From Nitrospirota bacterium (GTDB lineage Bacteria > Nitrospirota > JACRHJ01), in the NCBI GenBank assembly GCA_021789495.1, contig JAJYJM010000001.1:4018-68017 (forward strand): DNA of 64,000 nt, in the 5' to 3' direction. Made by a program: the position numbers and the translations under genes. Shown in pieces: positions 2,855 through 55,764 of the stretch; position 1 is the stretch's first letter, and every line of letters begins with the position of its first letter. Under the pieces are notes generated by a model. The model saw nothing but the letters and a program-made list of their open reading frames with translations, was not told the DNA's origin and searched no databases.

Positions 2855-3913
2855 ATGAAAGCACTGCTTAAAAAAGCCGCGTGCGGCAAGCGCCTGACAA
2901 AGGACGAGGGAATCTCCCTGTTCCTTGGAGCGGACCTGCTGTCCCTCGCCAGGACTGCGGACATGGTGCGGAAGCGCTTGCACCCGGAGGGCGTCGTCTC
3001 CTTCATCATAGACAGGAACATTAACTATACCAATGTCTGCGTAAACCAGTGCCGGTTCTGCGCTTTTTACAGAAGCGAGGACGCGCCGGAGGCATATCTC
3101 CTGCCGGATGACGTAATATTTCAGAAAATTAAAGAGACCGTTGAGGTCGGCGGCACGCAGATACTCATACAGGGCGGCCTGCACCCAAGGCTCGATATTT
3201 CATATTACAGGAGACTGTTCTCCGCTATAAAGAAACGTTTTACCATTAATATTCATGGGCTTTCGCCTGCGGAGATAAAGCATATTGCGAAGAATTCAGA
3301 GCTAACAATCAGAGAAACCTTGATTAATCTGAAGGAAGCCGGTCTGGATTCGATACCCGGCGGCGGCGCGGAGATACTGGTTGACAGCGTCCGGGGCGAG
3401 GTAAGCCCTAAGAAAATATCGTATGAGGGCTGGCGCTACGTGATGCTGACGGCCCAGGAACTCGGCTTTCCCACAACAGCGACGATGATGTTCGGAAGCG
3501 TGGAGAGGCCTGAGGACATTGTCGAGCATATCTTCCGTGTGCGGGAGATGCAGGACGCGCATCACGGCTTCACCGCATTTATCCCCTGGACGTATCAACC
3601 GGGCAATACCGAACTTGGCGGAAAAACGGCTACAAGCGTGGAATACCTCCGGGTACTCGCGTTCTCCCGGCTTTTCCTGGACAACGTCCCAAACTTGCAG
3701 GTCTCGTGGGTTACGCAGGGGGCGGCAATGGCCCAGGCGGCGCTTCGGTTCGGAGCGAACGATTTCGGGAGCACGATGCTCGAAGAGAACGTCGTGGCCG
3801 CAGCCGGAGTAAAAAACCGCTTAGACACTAGGGACATTGTATATCTAATTAAAAATGCAGGTTTCACCCCTGCGCAGCGCGATACCAAGTATTCGATTTT
3901 AAAGGTTTTTTAG
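2855..3913 (+). CDS. menaquinone (futalosine pathway) radical SAM enzyme, MqnC/MqnE family (second paralog)
   Basis: CVNQCRFCAF motif. Paralogous to the preceding ORF with the same conserved blocks. Confidence 0.8.
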   Translation: MKALLKKAACGKRLTKDEGISLFLGADLLSLARTADMVRKRLHPEGVVSFIIDRNINYTNVCVNQCRFCAFYRSEDAPEAYLLPDDVIFQKIKETVEVGGTQILIQGGLHPRLDISYYRRLFSAIKKRFTINIHGLSPAEIKHIAKNSELTIRETLINLKEAGLDSIPGGGAEILVDSVRGEVSPKKISYEGWRYVMLTAQELGFPTTATMMFGSVERPEDIVEHIFRVREMQDAHHGFTAFIPWTYQPGNTELGGKTATSVEYLRVLAFSRLFLDNVPNLQVSWVTQGAAMAQAALRFGANDFGSTMLEENVVAAAGVKNRLDTRDIVYLIKNAGFTPAQRDTKYSILKVF

Positions 3914-3994
3914 CCCACGTTTTAAATTCTCCTGTGTTTTCCTCGACTTAAGGCCCCAATCCACAATCTCTGTGGAAAAACTGTTGAAAACACT

Positions 3995-4035
3995 GTTGAA
4001 AATAAAACAATCCCTCTCCCGGCAACAGTCGGGAG
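3995..4035 (-). terminator. rho-independent terminator-like hairpin (ccctctcccg-N8-cgggagaggg followed by T-run on minus strand)
   Basis: Perfect 10 bp GC-rich stem. Downstream T-rich tract when read on the minus strand. Lies downstream of the minus-strand lipoprotein gene. Confidence 0.45.
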
Positions 4036-4146
4036 AGGGTGCTTAAAAACTAAGCATCTTTAAAAAATATAAGCAAATTTTAATCTGAAAACGGTTGTCA
4101 TTTAAATGACGGAACCATATAAAATATAAAATTTATCGTCAAGAAA

Positions 4147-7132: not shown

Positions 7133-8481
7133 ATTAGAACGCCTGCCAGCGAATGTTTTCTGCCTTCGATAACTTTTACCCGCACAAGCCTTCCGACAAG
7201 CTCCGGCGGGCCTTCAAAGTTCACAATCTTCCCCTGCCTTGTCTTGCCGGTGAGCCTGCCCATTTCTCCCGATTTGTCCGGGCCTTCGACCAGCGCCTCC
7301 TCGACAAGGCCGATGCGCGCGCTTATCTTCTCCTGCATTATTTTGTCCTGGAGTTCCAGAACCTTATACAGCCGCTCGTCCCTGACATCTTCCGGAAGAT
7401 GACCTGGTAATTTCAACGCGGCGGTATTAGGCCTGTTTGAATATTTGAAGGCGAATATGCCGTCAAAGCGAATATCCTCAAGTGCGCTTATCGTCGCCTG
7501 GAAGTCCTCTTCCGTCTCGCCCGGAAATCCTGCGATTATGTCCGTGGATACGGCGAGGTCAGGGACGGCGTCTCTCAGCGCGCCAAGCCTGTTCATGTAA
7601 TCCGTGAAGGTATATTTCCTGTTCATCCGGCCAAGCACACTGTCGGACGCGGACTGAAGCGGCAGGTGTATCGCGTTGCAGACCTTCGGGAGATTTGCCA
7701 TGGCGCCGATAAGGGAGCCGGAAAGGTCCTTCGGGTGCGAGGTTACGAAGCGGATGCGAAGAAGGCCGTCGATGGCATTTATTTCTTTTAGCAATTCCGG
7801 AAAGTTGCAGTTCTTTTCATTCATCCCCCTCTTAAGATAAGAGGGGGAAAGAGGGGGCGTTATGACAGGTTTTCCATACGAATTTACGTTCTGGCCAAGC
7901 AGCGTAACCTCCCGGCAACCGGACTTCACGAGTTCTTCTACCTCGCGGATAATGTCACCCGGTCTCCGGCTCCTCTCACGGCCCCGGACGAAAGGCACGA
8001 CGCAGTAGGTGCAGAAATTGTCGCAGCCGTACATTATGTTCACGAAGGCGGCCACCGCGCTCTCCCGCGAAGCGGGGATTGCGGTATGCTCGTAACCATC
8101 CGTGAAACGGGTGTCGATGGCGGTCCCGCCTGCGGATTCTTCAATCAGGGACGGCAATTTATCGATGTTCTGATTACCGAAAAGAATATCTATATACGGA
8201 GCCCGCCGCAGCATGGACTTTCCTTCCTGCTGGGCTATGCAGCCGGACACGGCGATTTTCATGGAGGGGTTCTGCTTCTTGAGTTCCCGGAGCTTGCCGA
8301 GCGCGCTGTAGAATTTCTGCTCCGCCTTTTCGCGGATGCTGCATGTATTGAGCAGGACGAGGCCCGCGTCTTCGAGCCTTTCGGATTCGCTGTAGCCCTC
8401 GGCTTTCAGGAGACCCGCCAGTTTCTCGGAGTCGTGCTCGTTCATCTGGCAGCCGAAGGTAAGGATTTTGAAGCTCTTCAT
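7129..8481 (-). CDS. miaB: tRNA-i6A37 methylthiotransferase MiaB
   Basis: FGCQMNEHDSE N-terminus. CDNFCTYC radical SAM motif. 450 aa MiaB-like length. Confidence 0.8.
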   Translation of the reverse strand: MKSFKILTFGCQMNEHDSEKLAGLLKAEGYSESERLEDAGLVLLNTCSIREKAEQKFYSALGKLRELKKQNPSMKIAVSGCIAQQEGKSMLRRAPYIDILFGNQNIDKLPSLIEESAGGTAIDTRFTDGYEHTAIPASRESAVAAFVNIMYGCDNFCTYCVVPFVRGRERSRRPGDIIREVEELVKSGCREVTLLGQNVNSYGKPVITPPLSPSYLKRGMNEKNCNFPELLKEINAIDGLLRIRFVTSHPKDLSGSLIGAMANLPKVCNAIHLPLQSASDSVLGRMNRKYTFTDYMNRLGALRDAVPDLAVSTDIIAGFPGETEEDFQATISALEDIRFDGIFAFKYSNRPNTAALKLPGHLPEDVRDERLYKVLELQDKIMQEKISARIGLVEEALVEGPDKSGEMGRLTGKTRQGKIVNFEGPPELVGRLVRVKVIEGRKHSLAGVLI

Positions 8482-49340: not shown

Positions 49341-50213
49341 CTATACCTCCTGCCCGACGTATTTCCCGATGATTGCGTCGAGTTTCCTTTTGGTTTCCTC
49401 CGGTATAAGCTCAGCCGAGGTCATTATGGCGTATTTCAGGGAATCCCCGCACGCGCACGAACGCGAAACCGGCATGGCCTCCACGGCTATCTGAATAATC
49501 TTCTTGGCTGTCTCCACGTTCTTTCTGAGGATGGCGATTACGGCCTCGATTGTAACGTCTTCCTCGGTCTCGTGCCAGCAGTCGTAGTCCGTCGCAAGCG
49601 CAAGCGTCGCATAGCATATCTCCGCCTCGCGCGCAAGCTTCGCCTCCGTTACGTTAGTCATGCCGATTACGTCCACTCCCCAGCCGCGGTATATCCTCGA
49701 TTCGCCCCTGGTGGAGAACTGCGGGCCTTCCATGCAGATATACGTCCCGCCCCTATGCATCTTCGCGCCGGCCTTAACTCCCGCGTCATAAAGCGCGCCC
49801 GCAAGCTCCGGGCAGACCGGGTCTGCAAATCCGACGTGCGCCACGACCCCGCCGCCGAAGAACGTGCTGACGCGGTTCTTAGTCTGGTCGTAGAACTGGT
49901 CCGGGACGACAATCTCGCCGGGCCGGATTTCCTCCTTCATGCTCCCGACGGCGGAGACGGATATTATACGCTCGACGCCGAGTTTCTTCATGGCGTAGAT
50001 GTTCGCCCGGTAGTTTATCTCCGAGGGCGTGAACCTGTGCCCCCGGCCATGTCGCGGGAGAAACGCGAGCCTCCTGCCTTCAAGGGTGCCCAGGACGAAC
50101 TCGTCCGACGGCTCCCCGAACGGTGTATCCACCCGGACGGACGTAACGTATTTAAGGCCCTCCATGTCGTAGAGACCGCTTCCGCCTATGACTCCTATCT
50201 CCGCTTCGGACAA
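49341..50213 (-). CDS. mtnP: S-methyl-5'-thioadenosine phosphorylase
   Basis: [12 protein letters not shown]-terminus. PNP/MTAP family blocks. Confidence 0.85.
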
Positions 50214-50762
50214 TTCAAGCTCCTTTTTTCTTTGTCATTCGGAAAATGCCAATAGAACTAAAGAATTATAAGGCATTGGAACTGTTTTGTAAAGGGATTT
50301 CGGGCGGACTAAAAGCAGGGGCTTAAGTTTATTGCGTCCGGCATTCCCGTGAAATCGGGAACCCGGCGGCTTTTCTTACCCTCGCCCTTTCATGGGAGAG
50401 GATGGCCGAAGGCCGGGAGAGGGTTCGCCGTTTTCCTGATTTGTAATTGCCAGATTCATCGGGCGGCGTCTGGAAATTACGATGCGATTTAATTATAATA
50501 TCGAGCCACGCACCAAGAGTAAACCTAATCGGTCGGGAAAGTTCGTTCTCAGGATAATTTACTATGAGCTACGATAACTCCCCGCCAACTTTGGATTATT
50601 TTTATAAATTCCCGAATTTTTCGGCGGAATCGGAAACGGGCTGAAAACGGGCCGTTTTCGGGCATTTTCGGGGCAAAAAGGAGGGGCGGAGAAGGGGGCG
50701 ATTTGGCGGGTTTTCTATGGATATTCCATTTATTTTACAACCGGTTAAACAATAAAACGCTG

Positions 50763-50789
50763 TCATTCCGAGCGAAGCGAAGAATCCGA
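50763..50789 (+). repeat. copy of dispersed repeat (TGTCATTCCGAGCGAAGCGAAGAATCC)
   Basis: Read directly. Lies within the 700 bp ORF-free region. A partial copy is also at 50238-50255. Confidence 0.6.
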
Positions 50790-50928
50790 CTATCGCCTTT
50801 GTAACCCATTGAAAACGTTGAAATCCTATTTTGCGTTTTCGGCGGGTTTGAACGGCCTGCGGCGACTTATTGAAGGTTATTTATATAATGAGAGAAACGG
50901 CGGGTTTTTAATCGCCTTTAATCAGGCG

Positions 50929-51468
50929 TTATTCCTTGAAATATCCGGAGGTTACCCTCTCCCAGTCTCCCCTCGCCTGAAGGATTAAATCTATGACCTC
51001 TCGCACTGCGGCCTCGCCCCCGCGCCTCTCCGTTACCATGTCCGCCGCCTCCCTGACATACGGCTCGGCGTCCGCAACCGCGATAGAAAGCCCCACCCGC
51101 CTCATAACCGGCAGGTCCACATTATCGTCCCCGATGTAAGCGACCTCCTCGTCCACTACGCCCAGTCTGTCCTTAAGCTCTTGATATGCCGGGAGTTTTT
51201 CCTTCGCCCCCTGGATTACGTGCTCTATTCCAAGCTCCCCGGCCCGGACATTCACCACCTTGGAATTCCTGCCCGTAATGAGCGCTACATCCACCCCGGC
51301 GCGCATCAGAAGCTTTATTCCGTGCCCGTCCCGGACGTGAAAGACCTTATATTCCAAGCCGTTACCGTCGAGTATTATCTCCCCACGGGTCAACACTCCG
51401 TCCACGTCGGATATAAAAAGCTTTATTTTCGAGGCCTTGCGCCGTATTCCCAAGTCCTTGTTTTTCAT
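50929..51468 (-). CDS. kdsC: 3-deoxy-D-manno-octulosonate 8-phosphate phosphatase
   Basis: HAD motif I FISDVDGVLT. KdsC-size (179 aa). Confidence 0.85.
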   Translation of the reverse strand: MKNKDLGIRRKASKIKLFISDVDGVLTRGEIILDGNGLEYKVFHVRDGHGIKLLMRAGVDVALITGRNSKVVNVRAGELGIEHVIQGAKEKLPAYQELKDRLGVVDEEVAYIGDDNVDLPVMRRVGLSIAVADAEPYVREAADMVTERRGGEAAVREVIDLILQARGDWERVTSGYFKE

Positions 51469-52421
51469 ACGATTCCCGCCTTCAGCAGGTCGTGCAGGTG
51501 GATTATCCCGTCCGGGCGGCCCTTTTCGTCCACGGTCAAAAGCGAGGTTATGGAATGCCTCTCCATTACGGAAACCGCCTCCGCCGCAAGCGAATTCCTG
51601 TTTATTATCTTGGGGTTGCCATGCGCAAGCTCTCCGGCGCTCCGGGAGAAGAGATCGTCGGATTTCTCAAGATAGCGCCTTAAGTCCCCGTCGGTTATGA
51701 CGCCGACCAGCTTCCCATTGTCGTCCACGACAGTCGTTACGCCCATCTTCTTCGAGGTTATCTCGAAAAGCGCCTCACGCATGGAGGTTTCCGCTTTTAC
51801 GACGGGCACTTCCGGGCCTTTGTGCATGAGGTCCTCGACCCGCAGGAGGAGCCTTTTCCCAAGGCTTCCGCCGGGGTGGAAGCAGGCGAAGTCCTCCTCT
51901 TTAAACCCGCGTTTTTCAAGGAGAGTAATGGCAATTGCGTCCCCCATCGCGAGCGCGGCGGTGGTGGAAGCCGTCGGAGCAAGCCCAAGCGGACAGGCCT
52001 CCTCGGAGACGCCAACGTCAATCGTAACCTCGGCGGCCTTGGAAAGCGAGGAATCCATCCCGCCGGTAAGGGCTATGACTGGGATTGCCAACCTCTTGAA
52101 AACAGGGAGCAATTTTACTATTTCCTCCGTCTCTCCCGAATTGGATATGGCTATTACAATGTCGCCCCTCGTTACCATCCCCAGGTCGCCGTGTATTCCA
52201 TCGGCGGGGTGCAGGAACAGTGCCGGAGTGCCGGTAGAGGCAAGCGTTGCGGCGATTTTTTTGCCTATAAGGCCGGATTTCCCCATGCCTGTAACGACTA
52301 CGCGGCCCTTGCAGGCAAGGATTATCTCCATAGCCCGCGTGAACCCGCCGTCTATCCTGTCGATAAGGGCAAGTATCGCCTCGGCCTCGATTTTCAGGAC
52401 TTTTTTCGCACCGTCGAGCAT
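51465..52421 (-). CDS. kdsD: arabinose-5-phosphate isomerase (KdsD/KpsF; SIS plus tandem CBS)
   Basis: SIS motif VTGMGKSGLIG. Two C-terminal CBS domains. Start moved to the internal Met. Confidence 0.85.
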   Translation of the reverse strand: MLDGAKKVLKIEAEAILALIDRIDGGFTRAMEIILACKGRVVVTGMGKSGLIGKKIAATLASTGTPALFLHPADGIHGDLGMVTRGDIVIAISNSGETEEIVKLLPVFKRLAIPVIALTGGMDSSLSKAAEVTIDVGVSEEACPLGLAPTASTTAALAMGDAIAITLLEKRGFKEEDFACFHPGGSLGKRLLLRVEDLMHKGPEVPVVKAETSMREALFEITSKKMGVTTVVDDNGKLVGVITDGDLRRYLEKSDDLFSRSAGELAHGNPKIINRNSLAAEAVSVMERHSITSLLTVDEKGRPDGIIHLHDLLKAGIV

Positions 52422-53329
52422 TATGCCTCCGCCGTCGCGGGCCGGCCCGCCGCCGCGCGGACTGCAATAATCTGCTTTATTATCATAGACATTCCGGCAA
52501 TATCCACCATGTTCGGCCCGTCGCAGAGGGCCTCGTCGGGGCATGGATGGACTTCCATAAATATCCCGTCGATGCCGACAGCCGCAGCCGCGCGCGCAAG
52601 GGGCGCGACGAACTGCCTGTCGCCTGAGCTTTTGTCCCCTCCTACGCCGGGCAGCTGGACACTGTGTGTCGCGTCGAATATCACGGGATAGCCCATTTCG
52701 CGCATTATTATAAGCGCGCGGAAGTCCACGACAAGGTTGTTATATCCGAACGAGGCGCCGCGCTCGGTGAGGATAATGTCATCGTAAACCCCTCGCCCTG
52801 CGGGAGAGGGGCAGGGGGTGAGGGCTTCATCTGCCGCTCTTATTTTGTTTATTACGTTCTTCATCTCCCAGGGTGACATAAACTGGCCCTTCTTCACGTT
52901 CACGGGTTTGCCAGTCCTGGCCGCCGCCTGGAGGATGTCCGTCTGACGGCAGAGGAATGCCGGTATCTGAAGCGCGTCCAGGACCTCAGCCGCGGGAGCC
53001 GCCTGTTCCGGGAGGTGAATGTCTGAAATCACCGGGACGCGAAAAGTCTCCTTCACCTTGGCAAGAAGTTTTAAACCGTCCGCCATACCCGGCCCACGGT
53101 ATGAGGACGATGAACTCCTATTCGCCTTGTCGAACGACGACTTGAATACGAGCGGCACGCGCAGGTCTGCGGCGGCCTTAACAACCTGCTCCGCCGCATT
53201 CATAAGCTTCGCCTCGGACTCGATGACGCACGGCCCGGCAATCAGCACGAGCGGACTGCCGCCGCCGAGTTTGATGGGACCTATTTTAATTTCTTTTGTC
53301 ACCCTCTCCCCCATCCCCTCTCCCATCAA
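52421..53329 (-). CDS. kdsA: 2-dehydro-3-deoxyphosphooctonate aldolase (KDO8P synthase)
   Basis: Conserved KSSFDKANRSS, GANFGY.NLVVD and DATHSVQ blocks. Contains a ~14 aa insertion coincident with a GC-rich hairpin element. True start probably the ATG at 53326 or 53314. Confidence 0.85.
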   Translation of the reverse strand: MMGEGMGERVTKEIKIGPIKLGGGSPLVLIAGPCVIESEAKLMNAAEQVVKAAADLRVPLVFKSSFDKANRSSSSSYRGPGMADGLKLLAKVKETFRVPVISDIHLPEQAAPAAEVLDALQIPAFLCRQTDILQAAARTGKPVNVKKGQFMSPWEMKNVINKIRAADEALTPCPSPAGRGVYDDIILTERGASFGYNNLVVDFRALIIMREMGYPVIFDATHSVQLPGVGGDKSSGDRQFVAPLARAAAAVGIDGIFMEVHPCPDEALCDGPNMVDIAGMSMIIKQIIAVRAAAGRPATAEA

Positions 53330-53344
53330 GGGCGAGGGAAAAAA

Positions 53345-55764
<2,420 letters not shown>

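Follow-up and report, generated by a model that had tools for sequence, protein, structure and literature searches.

An in-frame BoxC/PIT/TM_ECO-type repeat within kdsA of a Nitrospirota bacterium and its putative relation to DUF559 cassettes

The kdsA gene in the 64,000-nucleotide stretch of Nitrospirota DNA analysed here (the window) carries an in-frame insertion, which we confirm as real. As judged from its sequence, the inserted DNA is a copy of the BoxC/PIT/TM_ECO repeat (hereafter TM) and not a private palindrome. It is best read as the solo, non-autonomous end of a cassette in which two inverted TMs enclose a gene for a DUF559 nuclease. We demonstrate the identity of the repeat, its empty and filled sites, its position in a loop, its recurrence within other genes and the TM-DUF559-TM architecture as a physical arrangement. 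No explanation has been available for BoxC/PIT/TM_ECO repeats from the time they were described in E. coli; a repeat long held to be purely intergenic can be carried and translated inside an essential cell-envelope enzyme without destroying that enzyme.

The inserted repeat and its copies in the window

The features of the window that bear on the insertion are as follows.

52421-53314, minus strand: kdsA, encoding KDO-8-phosphate synthase (297 aa), from the ORF call and translation; host of the insert
52784-52828, minus strand: in-frame insert encoding EALTPCPSPAGRGVY, with a single Ser codon at the same place in close relatives
52789-52824, plus strand: three-arm repeat core of the BoxC/PIT/TM_ECO type, CCCCTCGCCC-TGC-GGGAGAGGGG-CAG-GGGGTGAGGG
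53302-53338, minus strand: second three-arm copy, in the opposite orientation to the in-gene one and situated between kdsA and the stop codon of pyrG
50379-50423, plus strand: third three-arm copy, intergenic, downstream of kdsC, with a mini-hairpin (GGCCGAAGGCC) in the spacer between its two G arms
4012-4039, no strand assigned: perfect two-arm hairpin with the same arm sequence, CCCTCTCCCG gcaacagt CGGGAGAGGG, between convergent ORFs

The kdsA product is an exact match to database protein P0001, for which Pfam PF00793 is recorded, and solved KDO8PS chains match it at E=1e-84. Alignment with homologues showed that all family-invariant residues and columns are kept in the insert-bearing protein; signature, invariant residues and TIM-barrel fold all place it among the KDO-8-phosphate synthases. 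The earlier note had claimed an insertion of about 14 aa relative to reference enzymes, and this is borne out: when KdsA was aligned with 114 homologues, extra residues at this position were found only in P0001-P0005. DNA alignment revealed 46 nt at the filled site in place of CTCG, which lengthens the gene by a net 42 nt (14 codons). In the sense direction the insert reads GAA GCC CTC ACC CCC TGC CCC TCT CCC GCA GGG CGA GGG GTT TAC, giving EALTPCPSPAGRGVY. The empty sites of three relatives (L007, L009 and L010) read ..GCCGG CTCG GACGAC.. and are mutually consistent, and their DNA is collinear.

Holder et al. 2015 (Nucleic Acids Res 43:10126, PMC4666352) listed 23 copies of the motif in E. 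coli K-12, always intergenic in MG1655 and, in that strain, without a link to mobile elements. They also catalogued it in 262 proteobacterial genomes, cite the Hoyne/Maher work on PIT elements and equate the motif with BoxC. The E. coli sequence forms an intrastrand triplex in vitro as single-stranded DNA, as observed by CD and NMR (PMC4666352). The motif, whose definition comes from the same paper, was taken as a C-rich arm (CCCTCNCCC), a loop of 3-6 nt and a pairable G-rich arm (GGGNGAGGG), with one mismatch allowed, followed by a third arm (again GGGNGAGGG) that lies on the same strand and is the mirror repeat of the second. The in-gene copy meets this definition at 52790-52798 (CCCTCGCCC), loop TGC, 52802-52810 (GGGAGAGGG) and 52816-52824 (GGGTGAGGG). 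Taken with 10-nt arms, it comprises a C arm at 52789-52798 (CCCCTCGCCC) and G arms at 52802-52811 (GGGAGAGGGG) and 52815-52824 (GGGGTGAGGG), separated by the loops TGC and CAG. A repeat search returned the first two of these as 90% complementary across the 3-nt loop, with one G.A mismatch in the hairpin. The inserted DNA had been described as a palindrome; its two arms stand, but the two-arm description missed the third at 52815-52824.

The spacer between the G arms is 5 nt (GCAGG) with 9-nt arms and 3 nt with 10-nt arms (GGGAGAGGGG CAG GGGGTGAGGG), and the literal published pattern, which requires exactly 3 nt in the second loop between arms of 9 nt, is missed by 2 nt. Arms of 10 nt are also a feature of the E. 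coli 'A mm' copies, their extra pair being on the loop side, whereas in the kdsA copy it is at the distal end. We treat the kdsA copy, from its sequence, as a register variant of the published pattern. It shares with the E. coli repeats the three arms (CCCTCNCCC, GGGNGAGGG, GGGNGAGGG), their order, the short loops and the occurrence in multiple copies and inverted pairs, and with the 'mm' copies the mismatch type, CCCTCGCCC opposite GGGAGAGGG. In contrast to the published repeats, it is intragenic, translated and found in Nitrospirota, and its family flanks DUF559 genes.

The same element had also been reported at three intergenic sites, which holds fully only for 50379-50423, a three-arm copy with an ortholog at 14568-14612 in the relative L006. 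The copy at 53302-53338 (CCCTCGCCC TTGAT GGGAGAGGG GAT GGGGGAGAGGG on the minus strand) also has three arms but is not purely intergenic, because the called kdsA ATG (53314) falls within it, together with a Shine-Dalgarno-like GGGAGAGGGG. The hairpin at 4012-4039 has two arms only; it could be a two-arm relative of the repeat or else a terminator. The pattern CCCTCNCCC-N2-12-GGGNGAGG occurs at four sites in the window (seven strand matches) against 0.00 expected from 100 shuffles, and the single-arm pattern GGGNGAGGG 14 times against 4.45 expected. The 64 kb contain three three-arm copies and one two-arm copy where none would be expected; more copies are present in relatives, although the whole genome was not covered. 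Membership of a repeat family, as first proposed, is upheld by the recurrence of the three-arm motif in the window, in intergenic regions of relatives and across bacterial phyla.

As RNA, 53302-53338 folds at -23.1 kcal/mol (z=-3.1) and 4012-4039 at -25.2 kcal/mol (z=-6.2). Folding of the in-gene copy on either strand was no better than that of composition-matched shuffles (z=-1.5 and -1.0), and we accordingly claim no selected mRNA structure for it. A G.U wobble on one strand, considered as a sign of selection at the RNA level, was dropped, because the two strands show G.A and T.C mismatches, respectively. No Rfam family matched 49500-54000 at E<=1.

Separately, a GTG at 53302 is an alternative kdsA start that aligns with the Met of relatives (MTKEIK); the N-termini read MGERVTKEI in the window and L008, versus MTKEI or MTREI in relatives.

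Distribution and predicted position of the insert

The insert is missing from 110 of the 115 aligned proteins, including P0006-P0012, which are 86-89% identical to KdsA. The four filled alleles (window, L005, L006 and L008) have common junctions and linked downstream synonymous variants (GAT GAy ATT). The comparison of kdsA in relatives, which the earlier note had put forward as a check, supports a lineage-specific insertion and no ancestral loop, as far as sequence comparison can tell. The inserts of the window and L005 differ at two positions, both non-synonymous (P to L, A to T), with the arms kept. A longer form is present in two lineages, L006 and L008, where a second copy lies inside the hairpin loop of the first and adds a further 66 nt, or 22 residues, in frame. 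The kdsA ORF remains intact in insert-bearing relatives that have diverged by 15-19% at the DNA level. L008 (filled) and L009 (empty), which come from the same sample, show two differences in the 147 nt upstream of the site and 11 in the first 37 nt downstream of it. The identical insert-bearing gene is found on seven contigs, and the four places sampled represent four independent assemblies or runs.

The AF2 model of KdsA has a pLDDT of 91.4 and TM-scores of 0.88-0.94 against 3und and 2nxg; outside the insert it superposes on solved KDO8P synthases at 1.2-1.5 Å. Insert residues 163-177 are modelled between a helix (148-165) and a strand (180-184), and residues 166-171 have a pLDDT below 50. 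The suggestion that the insert lies in a loop fits this AlphaFold model, in which it forms a loop of low confidence that joins helix 5 of the TIM barrel to strand 6. This loop, predicted to be disordered, is on the barrel face opposite the catalytic one. We infer that the insert is a neutral passenger; neutrality is deduced from persistence and position and was not measured. The repeat is stop-free in all three sense frames, and the absence of stop codons within it best accounts for the kdsA copy being tolerated. The insert marks a permissive loop in KdsA.

TM repeats in other genes and around DUF559 genes

A scan of species genomes identified the TM motif at 120 loci or more, in many phyla. 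We screened 28 long stop-free stretches across TMs, leaving uncounted the 15 without a Pfam match, and found in-frame TMs at no fewer than nine loci, either inside a Pfam domain or between the domains of a single protein. The hosts are IleRS (twice, in the same loop), DnaE, LigA, DnaX, an AcrB-family transporter, PrmC, MetRS and a HODM-like protein, encoded by ileS, dnaE, ligA, dnaX, an acrB-family transporter gene, prmC, metG and one further gene. Two of these cases were confirmed as insertions against solved structures. L092 and L127 were not counted as in-frame insertions; their TMs lie outside domains or between domains that can be explained separately. In-frame TM copies in essential genes are recurrent, and since TM ends lack stop codons, such elements could, on the tentative proposal given below, colonise essential genes (kdsA, ileS, dnaE, ligA, dnaX, metG) as translated loops. 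TM-derived peptides (PSPxGRG-like) in proteins like IleRS, DnaE, LigA and KdsA represent inserted selfish DNA rather than functional motifs specific to a lineage. For annotation, read-through of a TM leads to false N-terminal extensions and false start codons.

Among loci selected for TMs, all five DUF559 matches lay 10-36 nt from a TM. We define a cassette as two inverted TMs with their third arms facing inward, 400-650 bp apart and enclosing a DUF559 ORF. The enclosed gene encodes a DUF559 nuclease of about 105 aa (Vsr-like PD-(D/E)XK) that matches PF04480 and REase-like families. A further 80 metagenomic loci were chosen by DUF559 similarity only, with TM-adjacent DUF559 proteins as seeds. 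A hairpin core was found within 150 nt downstream of the DUF559 gene at 64 of the 80 (77 had enough downstream sequence), within 350 nt upstream at 66 (76 with enough upstream sequence) and on both sides at 56, against only 14 cores in the 116 kb of far flanks of these loci. Owing to the TM-adjacent seeds, the association applies to this subfamily and need not extend to the whole of PF04480. Complete cassettes (n=38) have a median length of 448 bp, and in L030 an entire TM-DUF559-TM cassette lies in frame within metG. E. coli ycjD ends in a degenerate TM, with Holder's copy no. 9 about 170 nt downstream, and is one example of a TM-flanked DUF559 gene. The literature we searched contained no paper linking DUF559 to BoxC or TM repeats, though such a link may still have been published elsewhere; on TM_ECO and PIT it offered only Holder 2015 and reviews of triplex DNA.

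It is an inference that TMs are moved by the DUF559 protein and that the kdsA copy came in this way. The kdsA copy itself does not qualify as a cassette: its inverted partner (53302-53338) is 549 bp away, and what lies between them is kdsA codons 1-163. As a solo end without an enclosed DUF559 gene, it is filed as a non-autonomous derivative. Searches of the window and about 60 kb of the Nitrospirota relatives (L001-L010) for DUF559, by tblastn and with an HMM built from metagenomic DUF559 segments, returned noise only, which leaves an autonomous partner in this genome unproven. No target-site duplication was found at the kdsA site or at the 38 complete cassettes. An apparent 15-nt direct repeat at L186 was rejected as a duplication, being a tandem arrangement of TM pairs.

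More broadly, BoxC/PIT/TM_ECO repeats would be the terminal inverted repeats of pan-bacterial selfish cassettes of about 450 bp, whose single gene, for the DUF559 nuclease, would mobilise the cassette and its solo or paired ends. We offer this tentatively and rate its chances at slightly less than even. Mobilisation may proceed by structure-specific cleavage at extruded mismatch-bearing hairpins, perhaps followed by repair-mediated copying. We know of no strand-transfer activity for this nuclease of about 105 aa, which leaves the chemistry of transposition unexplained. If the proposal is true, the cassettes would be a counterpart of REPIN/RAYT that relies on a different enzyme, and among the smallest autonomous mobile elements known. 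The TM-DUF559 link provides the first testable enzyme candidate behind BoxC-type repeats and offers a function for the widespread DUF559 domain, including E. coli YcjD, as well as a mechanistic explanation for the local instability of genomes which Holder et al. tied to such motifs.

Origin of the kdsA copy and comparison with known elements

Taken as a whole, from the origin of the insert in kdsA and its fate as a passenger loop to its later spread and its membership of a family of cassette ends, we consider the following account likely. A single TM would have entered kdsA in the ancestor of a small Nitrospirota clade, with 4 nt swapped for 46 nt where helix 5 of the TIM barrel meets strand 6. 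Its arms would have supplied C-runs and G-runs without a stop codon in the frame used, and with these stop-free arms and a net length of 42 nt kdsA would have stayed open. The element would now be merely translated, as a loop of 14-15 residues rich in Pro, Ser, Gly and Arg. Homologous recombination with short tracts of conversion would later have spread it through related populations or removed it from them, and in one sub-lineage a second TM would have entered the hairpin loop of the first, adding 66 nt in frame. TMs form the terminal inverted repeats, of about 35 bp, of the DUF559 cassette of about 450 bp, and solo TMs and inverted TM pairs would be its non-autonomous derivatives, as REPINs are to RAYT or MITEs to a parent IS.

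Local templated copying, with the TM of the pyrG-kdsA spacer, some 500 bp upstream, as donor in template switching or ectopic gene conversion, would need no element-encoded enzyme and remains possible, though we think it the less probable origin. In L007, whose kdsA site is empty, a TM upstream of kdsA (7896-7930) has the same orientation as the in-gene copy and shares with it 25 consecutive identical nt (AGCCCTCACCCCCTGCCCCTCTCCC) plus GCGAGGGG. The replacement of 4 nt without a target-site duplication is also in keeping with copying, as is the association of GC-rich hairpin/triplex motifs with replication slippage and local instability discussed by Holder et al. 2015 (PMC4666352). However, the kdsA target (GGCTCGGAC) has no homology to TM flanks that could seed conversion. 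Furthermore, members of the TM family occur in unrelated genes and in many phyla and are physically linked to a nuclease cassette, which favours an active spreading mechanism. Templated copying does not exclude a cassette origin and could be how solo TMs are copied.

The insert might instead have been co-opted, the 14-aa loop adding an interaction or regulatory property to KdsA, or the mRNA or DNA structure modulating kdsA expression. Its retention across alleles 15-19% apart, and even its enlargement in one lineage, could be read in this way, as could the overlap of the inverted partner copy with the kdsA ribosome-binding site and start codon. We nevertheless regard co-option as improbable: both differences between the window and L005 inserts alter the protein while the arms are kept, model confidence for the loop is very low, the loop accommodates 22 more residues in L006 and L008, and in close relatives KdsA functions in its absence. 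Earlier studies that Holder 2015 (PMC4666352) cites likewise found no promoter or terminator activity for the motif.

An ancestral variable loop that resembles the repeat by chance, or a misalignment, is effectively already refuted and we give it almost no weight: length does vary here in the family, with about seven extra residues in the Burkholderia KDO8PS, but 36 nt fit a defined three-arm motif for which no chance match is expected, the closest relatives' empty sites are collinear in DNA, and only 5 of 115 homologues carry the insert. Still harder to credit is an assembly or chimera artefact, for although repeats can collapse in metagenome assemblies, and L001 and L002 are 100% identical until just past kdsA and then diverge, this allele occurs in each of four independent assemblies, and diverged versions with intact reading frames occur in two NCBI MAGs and another contig.

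The solo cassette end that we favour can be set beside several known elements. Rickettsia palindromic elements (RPEs), reportedly described by Ogata and colleagues in Science in 2000 (290:347) and mentioned in papers such as PMC1779305, are small palindromic repeats that, like TMs, lie in frame in conserved coding genes, are translated and are tolerated through surface location and a kept frame. RPEs are AT-rich, 100-150 bp long and limited to Rickettsia and its relatives, and we know of no gene associated with them. In contrast, TMs are GC-rich, about 35 bp long and spread across phyla, and share no sequence similarity with RPEs. The kdsA insert (42-46 nt, GC-rich) does not meet the RPE definition of 100-150 bp and the RPE consensus, and the resemblance is behavioural only.

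REP/REPIN elements and RAYT transposases, which Nunvar and colleagues in 2010 and Bertels and Rainey in 2011 are said to have described, are also short GC-rich imperfect palindromes, single or in inverted pairs, with a small single gene between inverted repeats, an arrangement that follows the logic of TM-DUF559-TM. REPs are rarely reported in frame in genes. The TM repeats differ from them in having a third arm, and the gene they flank is a PD-(D/E)XK Vsr-like nuclease matching PF04480 (DUF559), not the IS200/IS605-type Y1 transposase that would define a REP/REPIN-RAYT system.

Bacterial MITEs that insert into ORFs are the subject of two reviews by Delihas (PMC2229807, PMC3184786) and of a paper on Coxiella MITEs (PMC5896051). 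MITEs carry a terminal inverted repeat at each end, usually come with a target-site duplication and have a parent IS with a DDE transposase. The kdsA element is a single end without a duplication, and its parent cassette encodes a nuclease; the defining pair of terminal repeats with a duplication is absent at kdsA.

Steczkiewicz et al. 2012 (PMC3424549) grouped Vsr-like (EDxHD) homing endonucleases of the I-Bth0305I type with Vsr and DUF559. In these, as in the cassettes, the DUF559 nuclease fold is used by selfish elements inside essential genes. Homing endonucleases are carried by introns or inteins, which splicing removes, and home to one allelic site, whereas TM/DUF559 cassettes are unspliced and found at many unrelated sites. 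The short conversion tract at the kdsA site resembles homing-endonuclease co-conversion.

The three-arm repeat and its copies in the window

The palindrome that the earlier note had described in frame inside kdsA, with further copies in the window, is real, and the insert and the other named sites were all recovered. On the plus strand, 52789-52824 reads CCCCTCGCCC TGC GGGAGAGGGG CAG GGGGTGAGGG. An inverted-repeat search pairs CCCCTCGCCC with GGGAGAGGGG as a 10-nt inverted repeat (90% complementary, 3-nt loop), and the third block, GGGGTGAGGG, absent from the first description, is a mirror copy of GGGAGAGGGG. The arm motif GGGNGAGGG is over-represented in the window (14 occurrences against 4.45 expected), and CCCTCNCCC-N2-12-GGGNGAGG was found at four window sites and in none of 100 shuffles. 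The other sites had been taken for the same element; the copies exist, but they are not alike, two having three arms and one only two.

Features of the window
52421-53329, minus strand: ORF hosting the insert; 297-aa product starting at 53314
52784-52828, minus (sense) strand: in-frame inserted segment, encoding EALTPCPSPAGRGVY
50379-50423: three-arm copy
53302-53338: three-arm copy
4012-4039: two-arm hairpin between convergent ORFs

The 297-aa product is identical to the database protein P0001, which has Pfam PF00793, and matches solved KDO-8-phosphate synthases (KDO8PS) with E=1e-84. The hairpin at 4012-4039 is a perfect 10 bp with the same arm sequence, without the third arm and with A/T-rich runs on its flanks; the convergent ORFs end at 3913 and 4147, and it may work as a bidirectional terminator.

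The family is already known: the pattern 5'-CCCTCNCCC N3-6 GGGNGAGGG N3 GGGNGAGGG-3' was described as TM_ECO, formerly PIT or BoxC, with 23 copies in E. coli K-12 and 3610 across 262 proteobacterial genomes (Holder et al. 2015, PMC4666352). It forms an intrastrand triplex in vitro, has been linked to local genomic variability, and lacked promoter or terminator activity in earlier work cited there; in E. coli K-12 MG1655 it was 'always located intergenically', with no association with mobile elements found (PMC4666352). The family was thus described as intergenic, whereas the kdsA copy lies in coding sequence. Its arms are the same as those of TM_ECO, and its stem mismatch, with CCCTCGCCC facing GGGAGAGGG, is of the type most frequent in E. 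coli. Only the register differs: the arms of the kdsA copy are 10 nt long, and the literal 3-nt second loop of the TM_ECO pattern is therefore missed by 2 nt. That mismatch type occurs in all three three-arm window copies and 15 of the 23 E. coli K-12 copies, but in only 6-9% of 247 copies elsewhere, where the perfectly paired type is dominant. Rfam holds no family for the repeat.

Filled and empty kdsA alleles

Among 115 aligned KdsA homologues, extra residues at the insert position occur only in P0001-P0005, and seven relatives 86-89% identical to the window protein (P0006-P0012) have a single Ser there. The segment of about 14 aa is therefore an insertion, as first proposed, and not an ancestral loop; the suggested comparison with close relatives lacking it gives the same picture in DNA, with CTCG in place of 46 nt. 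Seven kdsA alleles were aligned for this filled and empty site comparison. The empty site in L009 reads GCCGG-CTCG-GACGAC, and L007 and L010 are near-identical; in the window and L005 the replacement of CTCG adds a net 42 nt. The filled sites of L006 and L008 are 66 nt longer still with the reading frame kept, the extra sequence being another three-arm copy that has a mini-hairpin in the spacer and sits within the hairpin loop of the first.

The insert-bearing allele was found on seven contigs, the four places returned representing four independent assemblies or runs, which rules out an assembly artefact as its source. Because the junctions and the linked downstream synonymous states GAT GAy ATT (GAC GAC ATC or GAA GAT ATA in empty alleles) are common to all four insert alleles, these sequences point to a single origin. 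Overall kdsA similarity does not predict which alleles carry the insert: the closest relative of L008, a filled allele, is the empty L009 from the same sample. Upstream of the site, 147 nt hold only 2 differences between the two, but the first 37 nt downstream hold 11; short-tract recombination has therefore exchanged the insert site.

In an AlphaFold2 model of KdsA built from the 115-sequence alignment (mean pLDDT 91.4), the insert spans residues 163-177, in the stretch that leads from helix 148-165 to strand 180-184; pLDDT falls below 50 at residues 166-171. Outside the insert, the model can be superposed on the KDO8PS of Burkholderia and Aquifex at 1.2-1.5 Å, and the family-invariant residues are all present in the window protein. 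The prediction agrees with the proposal that the insert is tolerated in a loop, and the length of this loop also varies elsewhere in the KDO8PS family (Burkholderia). A TIM barrel has its catalytic residues on the face formed by the C-terminal strand ends, and alpha-to-beta loops are found on the other face. The insert is modelled as a translated loop of low confidence, which is probably disordered.

Copies in conserved genes and the DUF559 cassette

A relaxed repeat pattern returned at least 120 loci from one genome per species. Titles of the matches listed name Proteobacteria of all classes, Chloroflexota, Planctomycetota, Verrucomicrobiota, Cyanobacteria, Thermoanaerobaculia, Omnitrophica, Bipolaricaulota, a Bifidobacterium MAG and Thermodesulfovibrionia. 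Every listed copy was checked for long stop-free frames on both sides, and the 28 best candidates were compared with Pfam; among these, the copy lies within a conserved protein at at least nine loci.

Copies in conserved proteins (loci of the species-genome scan)
IleRS, L033 (Devosia) and L087 (Gallionellaceae): same loop; proteins 39% identical
DnaE, L075: between finger and HHH_6 domains
LigA, L108: within adenylation domain
DnaX, L018: tau linker
HODM-like protein, L018: just upstream of matched part of domain
AcrB-family transporter, L062: within domain
PrmC, L026: between N-terminal and methyltransferase domains
MetRS, L030: between anticodon-binding and tRNA-binding domains

Aligned with solved IleRS (8c9e) and E. 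coli LigA (4glx), the repeat-derived peptides are clean insertions. The kdsA-type core is open in three sense frames and one antisense frame; survival of the gene needs only a fitting frame and length. Both IleRS copies, one alphaproteobacterial (L033) and one betaproteobacterial (L087), follow TPQWFxxM, reflecting either independent insertions into one permissive loop or a site preference of the element. A further insertion, of about 52 residues (query 117-168, against 4glx residues 104-109), is present in the LigA of L108 besides its repeat-derived peptide.

Inside metG of L030, two inverted copies enclose a complete DUF559 domain in a single reading frame throughout. A tblastn search with this domain gave five matches in repeat-selected loci, all of one architecture and all 10-36 nt from a copy. 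In E. coli K-12 the annotated DUF559 protein YcjD ends ...NRRSPSP* in a degenerate repeat copy, with Holder's copy no. 9 following some 170 nt downstream of ycjD. We then examined the 80 metagenomic loci most similar to the five-sequence alignment, chosen without reference to the repeat, although the alignment was seeded with repeat-adjacent proteins. A hairpin core lies within 150 nt downstream of DUF559 in 64 of the 80 (77 with enough sequence; all three arms in 53 of the 64), within 350 nt upstream in 66 (76 with enough sequence; all three arms in 45), and on both sides in 56, whereas the far flanks hold only 14 cores in 116 kb. The 38 complete cassettes measure 399-651 bp, with a median of 448 bp; the loops of their left and right ends are mutually complementary, so the ends are true inverted repeats, and no consistent target-site duplication was seen at these 38. 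Because cores flank the DUF559 genes, the ends are inverted and the far flanks are poor in cores, the repeat is, on sequence evidence, the terminal inverted repeat of a tiny cassette encoding a Vsr-like PD-(D/E)XK nuclease. Vsr and a homing endonuclease of a group I intron have been placed in one group with DUF559 (Steczkiewicz et al. 2012, PMC3424549). No link to the repeat was found in the searched papers that mention DUF559, which does not prove that it is unpublished, and no DUF559 gene was found in the ~120 kb examined (window and Nitrospirota relatives). In L186, a repeat-flanked DUF559 locus (1100-1200, 1650-1747), both flanks of DUF559 carry the same unit, in which a right-end copy is followed, 15 nt (AATCTGCGCTCTTCT) later, by a left-end copy; this looks like cassettes or their ends in tandem.

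The insert in kdsA represents a solo end of this repeat family; the insert arose once, was then passed among alleles by recombination and later became the target for a second copy. Solo and paired copies would be non-autonomous derivatives of the DUF559 cassette, much as REPINs relate to RAYT genes, with the nuclease step provided by DUF559. A Vsr-like enzyme may recognise its target in part through the conserved mismatch in the stem. At the kdsA site 4 nt are replaced and no duplication is seen. Alternatively, the repeat upstream of kdsA could have served as a local template from which the insert was copied, which does not exclude a cassette-derived origin; in favour of such copying, the upstream repeat of L007, whose own kdsA site is empty, has 25 identical nt in common with the in-gene copy. 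The initial reading of a real palindromic element is supported overall. Taken alone, the kdsA case adds an instance to a type of event already known from Rickettsia RPEs, in which a gene carries selfish palindromic DNA that is translated; its wider value lies in exposing recurrent invasion of core genes by the family and in tying the family to a specific nuclease gene.

The kdsA start and the pyrG-kdsA spacer

The upstream copy at 53302-53338 contains both the start called for kdsA (ATG at 53314; start region 53300-53314) and a Shine-Dalgarno-like GGGAGAGGGG. The relatives' Met aligns with the GTG codon at 53302, so that the repeat either borders on the native start of translation or has taken its place. 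It adds at most four residues (MGER) to KdsA, and L008 is arranged alike. The first 163 kdsA codons are bracketed by two copies (52790-53338) whose orientation and 549 bp span match DUF559 cassette ends (399-651 bp), an unexplained arrangement that may be coincidence.

The relatives' spacers carry other small hairpin repeat families (GTAGGGGCGCAATTTATTGCGCCC, GTCATTCCCGCGAAAGCGGGAACCC, GTCATTCTGAGCGAAGCGAAGAATC).

Spacer regions with other hairpin repeats
L005: 600-690
L006: 9915-10100
L007: 7945-8000
L009: 1270-1420
L010: 4870-5010

The spacer differs in almost every relative and is therefore a hotspot for small repeats. The 341-aa KdsA call P0005 (L006, 10001-10100) has a 45-residue N-terminal extension of translated intergenic hairpin repeats; this is an annotation artefact, the true start being the ATG of MIREIKIG. 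L001 and L002, from different samples, are 100% identical across pyrG and kdsA and begin to diverge about 56 nt beyond the kdsA stop (position 3950 onwards, 1290 mismatches), with different genes downstream of kdsC, which suggests that the pyrG-kdsA segment was recently recombined or transferred between strains. The homologues P0027 and P0040 have an internal duplication of about 70-90 residues repeating the IPAFLCRQTD...KKGQF region, which could be either a true tandem duplication or an assembly artefact.
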